A DNA stretch of 63,729 bases, filler included, from Atractiella rhizophila (lineage: Eukaryota): the NCBI GenBank assembly GCA_021432655.1. It is 8 parts of 7 records of this genome, joined end to end, with 100 filler letters (N's around TTAATTAATTAA, not from the genome) between each part and the next. Parts side by side here need not be neighbours in the genome. Positions count along the whole stretch, not along the records: positions 50,520 to 55,239 come from MU271320.1; 7 more parts are not named here. One strand, written 5' to 3'. The translations under genes and the position numbers were made by a program. This document shows, in pieces, positions 51,236 through 53,153 of the stretch. Positions within the stretch are counted from its first letter, which is position 1. Each line of letters starts with the position of its first letter. Under the pieces are notes generated by a model. That model worked only from the letters and a program-made list of their open reading frames with translations. It did not search any database and had not been told where the DNA came from.

Positions 51236-53153
51236 GCATTGAGTAAAACCCGTTCTCGTACTTGCATGATACACAAAGAGTATAGAGCGATTTTAACACG
51301 TAACCGGTTCGACCACAGTACGGAGGAACAAGAACGAATACATTATCGTTGTACCTCGATCTCGATAGTCGATACATACATGGTTGGAGGACCCTCGTGG
51401 CACTAGACGAGGAAAGTCTACGAAGAGAGCTGCGGTGCGATCGACAAACAACCACGCTTCAACTGCAGTTGATGCGCTTCAAGAACGGCAACTTAAGATG
51501 CTCTCGGAGCAAGACGTGACGATCATAGGACAAAACTCTACGTGGGTCGTTAAAAACTCGACGAGTTTCTTTGTGAACCCTCACTTAAGGTTATGCACCG
51601 TTCCAGACCTTTGTATCAGGTTGTTGAACGACTTCTACCCTCCTAACAGGCTGTAGATAAAACGTTCCAGCAGTGGAGTTTTACCCTGTCTCTAGTCCAC
51701 TTCCATGACGTAATCTAGAAATACAACAATCGTCTTGACTTCGACTACAGATACTATGTATCCCTCTCCGTCTTAGATAGTTTCGTAACGTAACACGAAG
51801 TCCCCTTAACAGAGGATTAGAGATACGAAAGGTCCTTTGGCTTCTCCCTTGCCAGTACCATAGCCCAACCAGTTCACTTAGAAGATGTTATATGCAGACA
51901 ATTGTCGTACGCCGTGTCTAAAGAAAGGCGGATTTGGGTTGAGAGGACGATGGGATGCACTTGAACCATGTGAAGATCGGAGTTTCCACGTAGTTATAGG
52001 AAGTGGTTTACCGTCTATGCCCAAAGTACATTGCTGGGTAACACCTGAATGTGGAGTTCTATTATGAACCCTTCTCTCAACCGAACAGCACACGAAAGAG
52101 TCGGACTCGAAAGCATCGGAGTGATAAAGACCGCGCCTTGTCAAAATGGCACTAGCGTCTAACTTCGTGGAGGAGGCGGTTTATTTACTGTTTCTCTACC
52201 ATCTGGAACCCCTTGTTGACACGCTAGTTCACACAGGAAAGAATAACCTCTTAAAGCCCGGTCGAGGGTTCGGACAAGACGAAGTGCCTCTGAACCAATC
52301 GGAAAGAACTATTTGCGTATTGTCTTGCCATTACCGCTGTTTCACCAGGCCTTTACACAGCTGAATATGACTGCTTCTACCTTCCGTTTTCGGTAAGTAG
52401 AAGCTACCGAGAAGTATGATGCCTGTAGTACTTCGTCTGGATCCCTAGTACTTGTACAAGCCACCGTGCATAGTCGAGGTCTTTAGTCCTACTAGTTGAC
52501 TTCGCGTGGAAATATCCAAAACCAGGTTGAAAGAAGCTCCGTATAGTAAGTCAAGACGGTTTCTCAATAGGAGTGATGGGGCTTGCTTACTTCAACATGC
52601 TTGATATAGTAGTGGACTTAGTAATGCACGAGAAACCCACACAGTTAAAGACAGGTATGAGGTAACATGAATGCTGCTGATGCAGTATGTTTCGCTCTCG
52701 ATGTCTAAGCCGCGACACTTTGAGTACTTCCTCAATAATTGGAAGAACCTTTTCTTTACTCTGCACTTTGTTGACGTAACATTTAAACGAAAGCACGTAT
52801 ACTAATGTTCAACAACATATCATTGGTCTTGGGTCACCCTTTTCGTCAGCATCATAGAGAACTCTCATATGTTATTTCGAACTCGGACAGAACGTATAGT
52901 AAACACTCGTCACTTGAAACGGTGTCGGTCGATGTCATATTGGTGTTTAGAGACTTTGATGGTTGCTCAGAGCGTGGTACAGTGGCGACATGCTCGAGCT
53001 ACGGGATAGAGCGAAGTGCGAGGGTCAACGGTCATTCGAGATGGGCTCAAGGTATACAGGATGGTACCTATAACAGCAAGAGAGGAGTCGTCTAAGACCC
53101 TTCAATACCACAATATCCTACTTGCCACCTCTTGACCAAACCTGAACCCTTAC
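51236..53153. other. Block reversed without complementation (mirror-image assembly artefact)
   Basis: 53136-53153 (CCAAACCTGAACCCTTAC) is the exact letter reversal of 51193-51210; the plain complement of the block carries spliced genes. Confidence 0.93.
51539..52760. CDS. Fructosamine-3-kinase family protein, readable only as the complement read left to right (minus strand once the block is corrected)
   Basis: MHPAIFELLK..., GEAESIKAL, SPNGRYGFHVTTHCG, QDNTWEESW, PVLLHGDL/WSGN, FIFDGSSYYGHHEADLGIMNMFGGF, RMKLYELYHHLNHYVLFG; six ~50-nt introns. Confidence 0.92.

Follow-up and report, generated by a model that had tools for sequence, protein, structure and literature searches.

The locus considered here raises the question of why a block of DNA whose deposited reading frames give no sign of a fructosamine kinase should encode one, interrupted by introns, when its bases are complemented without being reversed, and whether such a block represents natural DNA or an error of assembly. 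It lies in a window of 63,729 nucleotides, filler included, from Atractiella rhizophila, which is the whole stretch of DNA that was analyzed, and is contained in a stretch of 4720 bases bounded by the linkers at 50420-50519 and 55240-55339. The principal features, in coordinates of the window, are listed below, where X1, X2, and X3 designate public sequencing runs.

51236-53153, no strand assigned: reversed block, 1918 nt, deposited backwards without complementation; its true plus strand is read from right to left.
51211-51235, no strand assigned: run of 25 Ns, a spurious gap with no letters missing, which contigs of X1, X2, and X3 cross to the block read backwards.
51193-51210, plus strand: end of the left flank, 18 nt identical to the deposited letters from 53153 back to 53136; an overlap left unmerged.
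50520-51210, plus strand: left flank, normally oriented; X1, X2, and X3 all have contigs over it, with one or two letter differences; positive k-mer score.
53154-55239, minus strand: right flank, in normal orientation, carrying a CTP synthase gene that is cut on its 5' side by an N linker of 100 bases, 55240-55339.

Six fructosamine-kinase motifs had been reported in the original prediction from the complement-only reading of the block. Five of these (GEAES, GFHVTT, QDNTW, SYYGHHEADL, and LYHHLNH) are found in single-frame translations of that reading alone, being absent from the single-frame translations of the block as deposited, reverse-complemented, or reversed only; the sixth, LLHGDLWSGN, is interrupted by an intron and is recovered in the spliced model described below. 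In a tblastn search of 50520-55239 with YniA of Escherichia coli, taken from an annotated E. coli K-12 record, the complement-only copy was matched with an E value of 3e-13, as against 7.9 for the deposited copy. A local HMM was also constructed. An exhaustive search, in which the query was a protein identical to YniA, gave 150 representatives, and the HMM was built from the 117 with lengths of 270-320, all of which match PF03881. Two complement-only frames match this profile, with E values of 1e-23 and 2.6e-13, and the other nine frames gave no match to it below an E value of 1. A Pfam search with three ORFs of the deposited block produced no match. The claim that the six deposited frames hold only junk is therefore upheld in that neither tblastn nor the HMM detects a fructosamine-kinase signal in them, and the match to this family anticipated for the corrected sequence was found both with YniA in tblastn and with the local PF03881 HMM.

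The spliced model was derived by an anchored search in which introns of 40-75 nt with GT or GC donors and AG acceptors were permitted and the best HMM score was retained. The best model extends from 51539 to 52760 and encodes 299 amino acids in seven exons with no internal stops, in agreement with the seven-exon gene originally described, its introns of about 50 nt (48-59 nt in our model), and its single GC donor. The exons are as follows.

51539-51703, no strand assigned: exon 1, beginning at ATG; readable from left to right after complementing the bases, which corresponds to the true minus strand.
51763-51865, no strand assigned: exon 2, encoding GEAES.
51919-52088, no strand assigned: exon 3, encoding GFHVTT and QDNTW.
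52143-52295, no strand assigned: exon 4, ending partway through the catalytic-loop motif, after its first half, LLHGDL.
52344-52464, no strand assigned: exon 5, encoding WSGN and SYYGHHEADL and followed by the GC-donor intron, 52465-52516.
52517-52637, no strand assigned: exon 6, encoding LYHHLNH.
52694-52760, no strand assigned: exon 7, including the stop codon.

The nearest in-frame stop lies 16 codons upstream of the ATG of exon 1, with no ATG in between. The six introns are 59, 53, 54, 48, 52, and 56 nt long, sizes that match the 44-55-nt introns of the adjacent CTP synthase gene, as defined by joints in the RNA-like run (X3). Five of them have GT donors and one has a GC donor, at 52465; the model with the GC donor scores 210.7 bits compared with 201.6 bits for the nearest GT alternative.

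The spliced product matches the 117-member HMM with an E value of 1.5e-66 at this score and is aligned with positions 9-290 of 292, so that nearly the whole profile is covered, but it should be noted that this profile is a proxy built from 117 PF03881 members and is not Pfam's own model. Conservation reaches 90% or more in the 117 references at 47 residues, of which the model retains 41. The model has the HGDLWxGN motif (H194, G195, D196, L197, W198, G200, and N201) and the downstream Asp, Glu, and Asp (D218, E227, and D229), and these are presumably the catalytic residues of the kinase-like fold. The lysine and glutamate of the N-lobe are also present (F41 and K43 of the FxK motif, and E57), in columns that are each invariant in all 117 references; in the GG pair, the second glycine is replaced by N25. 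As in PF03881 members, of which E. coli YniA is an example, the FxK lysine, the glutamate, the HGDLWxGN motif, and the aspartate are kept. The product is 25-40% identical to the available bacterial members, and the best match among the 390 proteins compared is 37% identical; the hidden gene also differs from its bacterial counterparts in carrying six short introns. A protein search with E. coli YniA returned close enterobacterial relatives alone and no fungal orthologue. Judged by the proxy profile, the hidden gene is an intact predicted member of the fructosamine-kinase family.

The order of the letters in the block can also be examined independently of its coding content. Natural DNA is nearly strand-symmetric, yet it is asymmetric under reversal. 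An orientation score, the log ratio of the frequency of each 5-mer to that of the reversed 5-mer, was trained on the window minus the block. The block scores -53.7 per kb, compared with +85.5 and +64.2 for the two flanks. In windows of 400 nt, the mean score outside the block is +26.2 (S.D. 14.1, n = 291, minimum -11.3), and inside the block it is -22.5 (S.D. 13.7, n = 8, maximum -5.0), with change points in the score at 51239 and 53238. The statistic therefore favors the reversed reading over the block only, and no further runs of negative windows are present elsewhere in the window. The 400-nt windows starting at 49671, 57540, 57740, and 62753 were considered as additional reversed blocks and were rejected, their scores being within the tail of the background. 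Isolated windows with weakly negative scores (-5.8 to -11.3) are located at 49671-50070, 57540-58139, and 62753-63152, and there are no negative windows beside the 785-N gap at 2216-3000. The 5-mer orientation score represents a cheap screen for backwards blocks.

Sequence from the three public runs was compared with the deposited 50520-55239. All three consist of assembled contigs and not of raw reads; X1 and X2 come from one sample, which is possibly the source sample of the window assembly, so that they are not fully independent, and X3 is an RNA-like run with intron-skipping contigs. In alignments with the deposited stretch, contigs of these runs match 50520-51210 and 53154-55239. The alignments stop at 51210 and 53154, which shows that the borders originally given for the block, 51236 and 53153, are exact; the 25-N gap described at its start is also present, at 51211-51235, and the whole window has no other 25-N run. 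Where the contigs extend past these borders, they enter the block read backwards (that is, its letters taken from right to left without complementation). Beyond 51210, contigs of X1, X2, and X3 extend for 211-255 or more letters, and in each of the three runs the 30-letter consensus that follows 51210 agrees in every position with letters 19-48 of the block read backwards. On the right side, an X1 contig that lies on 53154-55239 has 142 extra letters upstream of 53154, and the 30-letter consensus just before this position is identical to the final 30 letters of the block read backwards. The left junction is therefore seen in three of three runs and the right junction in one of three, the contigs of X2 and X3 stopping at 53156 and 53154, respectively. 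No single contig bridges the whole block, the extensions of X1 (1682 and 142) giving 1824 of the 1900 letters required. The share of sampled words of 50520-55239 that is present is 0.53 in X1 and X2 and 0.32 in X3, and that expected if the flanks alone are real, with 7 single-letter differences allowed, is 0.539. Contig depth across the block is zero in X1, X2, and X3 (11 full bins), although absence of cover is not in itself evidence.

The flanks themselves carry a second trace of the same arrangement. A search for the longest exact overlap between the end of the left flank and the start of the block gave 18 nt for the block read backwards, as compared with 0 nt for the deposited and the reverse-complemented block and 1 nt for the complemented one. 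The letters of 51193-51210 are thus those with which the block read backwards begins, and the 25-N gap is spurious: it marks an unmerged 18-nt overlap, and nothing is missing there. On the other side, the block is directly adjacent to the right flank, the overlap being 0, and Ns occur only on the side of the left flank.

Some further properties of the contigs should be recorded. Those of X1 and X2 differ from the window by single letters at 50618, 50991, 53439, 53547, 53796, 54307, and 55030, and 4 of these seven differences are also found in X3; they are either consensus errors of the record or strain differences. The ends of the X2 DNA contig, at 53156, and of the RNA-like X3 contig, at 53154, coincide with the right border of the block. 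This suggests that 53154-53156 may be a break-prone spot for assemblies, which would account for an original gap at this place; alternatively, this position may be the 3' end of the CTP synthase mRNA, 74 nt past the stop codon.

We conclude, with a probability of about 0.92, that the block is a software artefact of assembly finishing in which a 1.9-kb piece of the genome was written backwards and uncomplemented. A gap-filling or scaffolding error had been suggested originally, and this view is supported by the exact borders, by the contigs that continue as the block read backwards, and by the 18-nt overlap. The reversal, the borders, the overlap, and the intact gene are observed directly, and the program and the step responsible are matters of inference. 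The version that we favor, to which we assign about an even chance, is that a gap was filled leftward from the right-hand contig and that the fill was pasted unflipped. The original gap would have lain between 51210 and 53154. A gap filler would have grown the right-hand contig leftwards and kept the letters of the fill in outward order or, after working on the other strand, have complemented them without reversing them. Pasted without flipping, the fill would have become continuous with the right flank, and the letters that it shared with the left flank would no longer have been recognizable, so that closure failed and a minimal gap of 25 Ns was written. The seamless join of the block to the right flank, with the Ns on the side of the left flank, fits growth from the right.

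A program with some of these properties has been described. According to parts of the PBJelly report (PMC3504050), a gap is defined as 25 or more Ns, the flanks are extended inward, and a gap for which no overlap is identified is left open. The gaps that PBJelly does not close resemble the present locus, as far as those parts describe them, in that new sequence on one flank reaches across the gap, but the same passages make no mention of backwards fills, and the use of PBJelly here is not indicated. A gap filler of this type might be the source, and we offer it as a lead only. Phrase searches of the literature for reversed but uncomplemented assembly errors, judged mainly by title, yielded no report of a filler with this fault.

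Among the other explanations, scaffolding is the one that retains some weight, although we regard it as unlikely. Here, a separate contig of 1.9 kb would have been flipped by reversal alone when it was placed between two other contigs; the 25-N spacer and the 18 nt left unmerged at the left flank do resemble a contig join, but the block meets the right flank without Ns or overlap, and a reversed contig could not have been joined seamlessly by overlap. Much less probable, to the point of being hardly credible, is an alteration after deposition, for example during preparation of the window, with the public record being correct. The presence in the window of seven unusual 100-base linkers is in keeping with such handling, but an unmerged 18-nt overlap with a 25-N spacer at the border is the trace of an assembler and is unlike a simple edit.

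We attach next to no weight to the view that the block is a real feature of the DNA of the isolate, either a true inversion or mirror-order DNA, in favor of which there is the deposited sequence itself and nothing beyond it. A true inversion, like a misoriented contig, shares with the block a letter order that is reversed relative to the flanks, but an inverted or properly flipped segment is reverse-complemented and its genes are readable in the six frames; the hidden gene is not readable there, and the deposited frames have no family match, in agreement with the original argument that reversal without complementation does not arise from a normal inversion. Furthermore, the order of the letters at the left junction is normal in X1, X2, and X3. 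To our knowledge, there is no enzymatic route, given the polarity of DNA strands, by which the order of letters could be reversed without a strand swap. The equally negligible view that the block was complemented in place, with the gene on the true plus strand from left to right, agrees with the gene being read from left to right after complementing, since content alone does not separate this from reversal, but it is refuted by the junction letters, as contigs continue past 51210 with the far end of the block backwards and arrive at 53154 with its near end backwards, and by the 18-nt overlap, which exists for the reversed reading only.

The reading that we prefer, reversal without complementation during assembly finishing, leads to a simple description of the locus. 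Because the junction letters of the contigs and the 18-nt overlap both fit the block read backwards, the block was reversed in place. The original prediction of reversal without complementation thus stands, with the refinement, provided by the junction letters, that the block was reversed, and not complemented, in place. The true sequence is the left flank, then the backwards block without its initial 18 letters, and then the right flank, with no gap; 1900 letters replace the 25 Ns and 1918 letters of the record. The hidden gene follows the CTP synthase gene on the true minus strand, with its position mirrored inside the block; the complement-only reading reveals it because this reading is that strand. 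In the direction of the same strand, the CTP synthase gene comes first, the intact predicted seven-exon gene of the fructosamine-kinase family second, and a transcribed unit that continues into the left flank third. An RNA-like contig of X3 covers 50520-50872 and 51144-51210, with 271 nt skipped that have minus-strand GT..AG ends, and this contig extends 211 letters into the reversed block. A transcribed unit therefore spans this junction, and the artefact interrupts it as well. The minus-strand ORF of the left flank, 50522-50872, gave no Pfam match and no homologue in a protein search.

The block is an assembly artefact and not a real biological feature, and the interest of the locus is one of data quality, practical and modest. 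The biology is ordinary, being that of an intact predicted fructosamine-kinase gene of housekeeping type beside a CTP synthase gene in a basidiomycete. It is reasonable to expect that annotation of this assembly, or studies of gene presence and absence based on it, would score an existing gene as absent; in addition, 1.9 kb of the record is absent from nature and could be mistaken for orphan or novel DNA. A broader possibility, which we put forward tentatively and consider somewhat improbable, is that the artefact reflects a systematic bug in finishing, such that many fills beside minimal 25-N gaps are backwards, here and in public assemblies from the same pipeline. If so, other genes beside small N gaps would also be affected, and there would be a class of apparently lost genes and of spurious orphan sequence that escapes the usual quality controls, for example six-frame searches and summaries of read depth on contigs.

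The CTP synthase gene of the right flank is on the minus strand, with its stop codon at 53228-53230, and is identified by Pfam matches to GATase and CTP_synth_N; it is also supported by an intron-skipping contig of X3. The best match of its exon is a protein named CTP synthase of Atractiella rhizophila, with 91% identity to a query ORF that reads through a 48-nt intron; the next best matches have about 60% identity. The last 67 amino acids of the named A. rhizophila protein are 100% identical to the window, which accordingly comes from this basidiomycete or from a species very near to it. The gene is in two pieces, 53228-55164 and 55575-55655, split by the linker at 55240-55339, and nothing before this linker corresponds to the initial 100 or so positions of the CTP_synth_N profile. 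The database protein has 520 amino acids compared with about 600 in most relatives, and its first 29 residues map past the linker with 86% identity; in all probability, the database gene model is a truncated one that was patched over a gap.

The seven linkers, at 16340-16439, 42370-42469, 49171-49270, 50420-50519, 55240-55339, 60643-60742, and 62453-62552, are identical and each consists of 100 bases: 44 Ns, a 12-mer with stops in all six frames, and 44 Ns. They could have been introduced in assembly, in submission, or in preparation of the window. Because the linker at 55240-55339 falls inside the CTP synthase gene, we read them as gaps within a scaffold and not as joins of unrelated contigs. 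On the far side of this linker, an ORF on the plus strand with a Helicase_C domain, 56236-56907, belongs to a normally oriented helicase gene.
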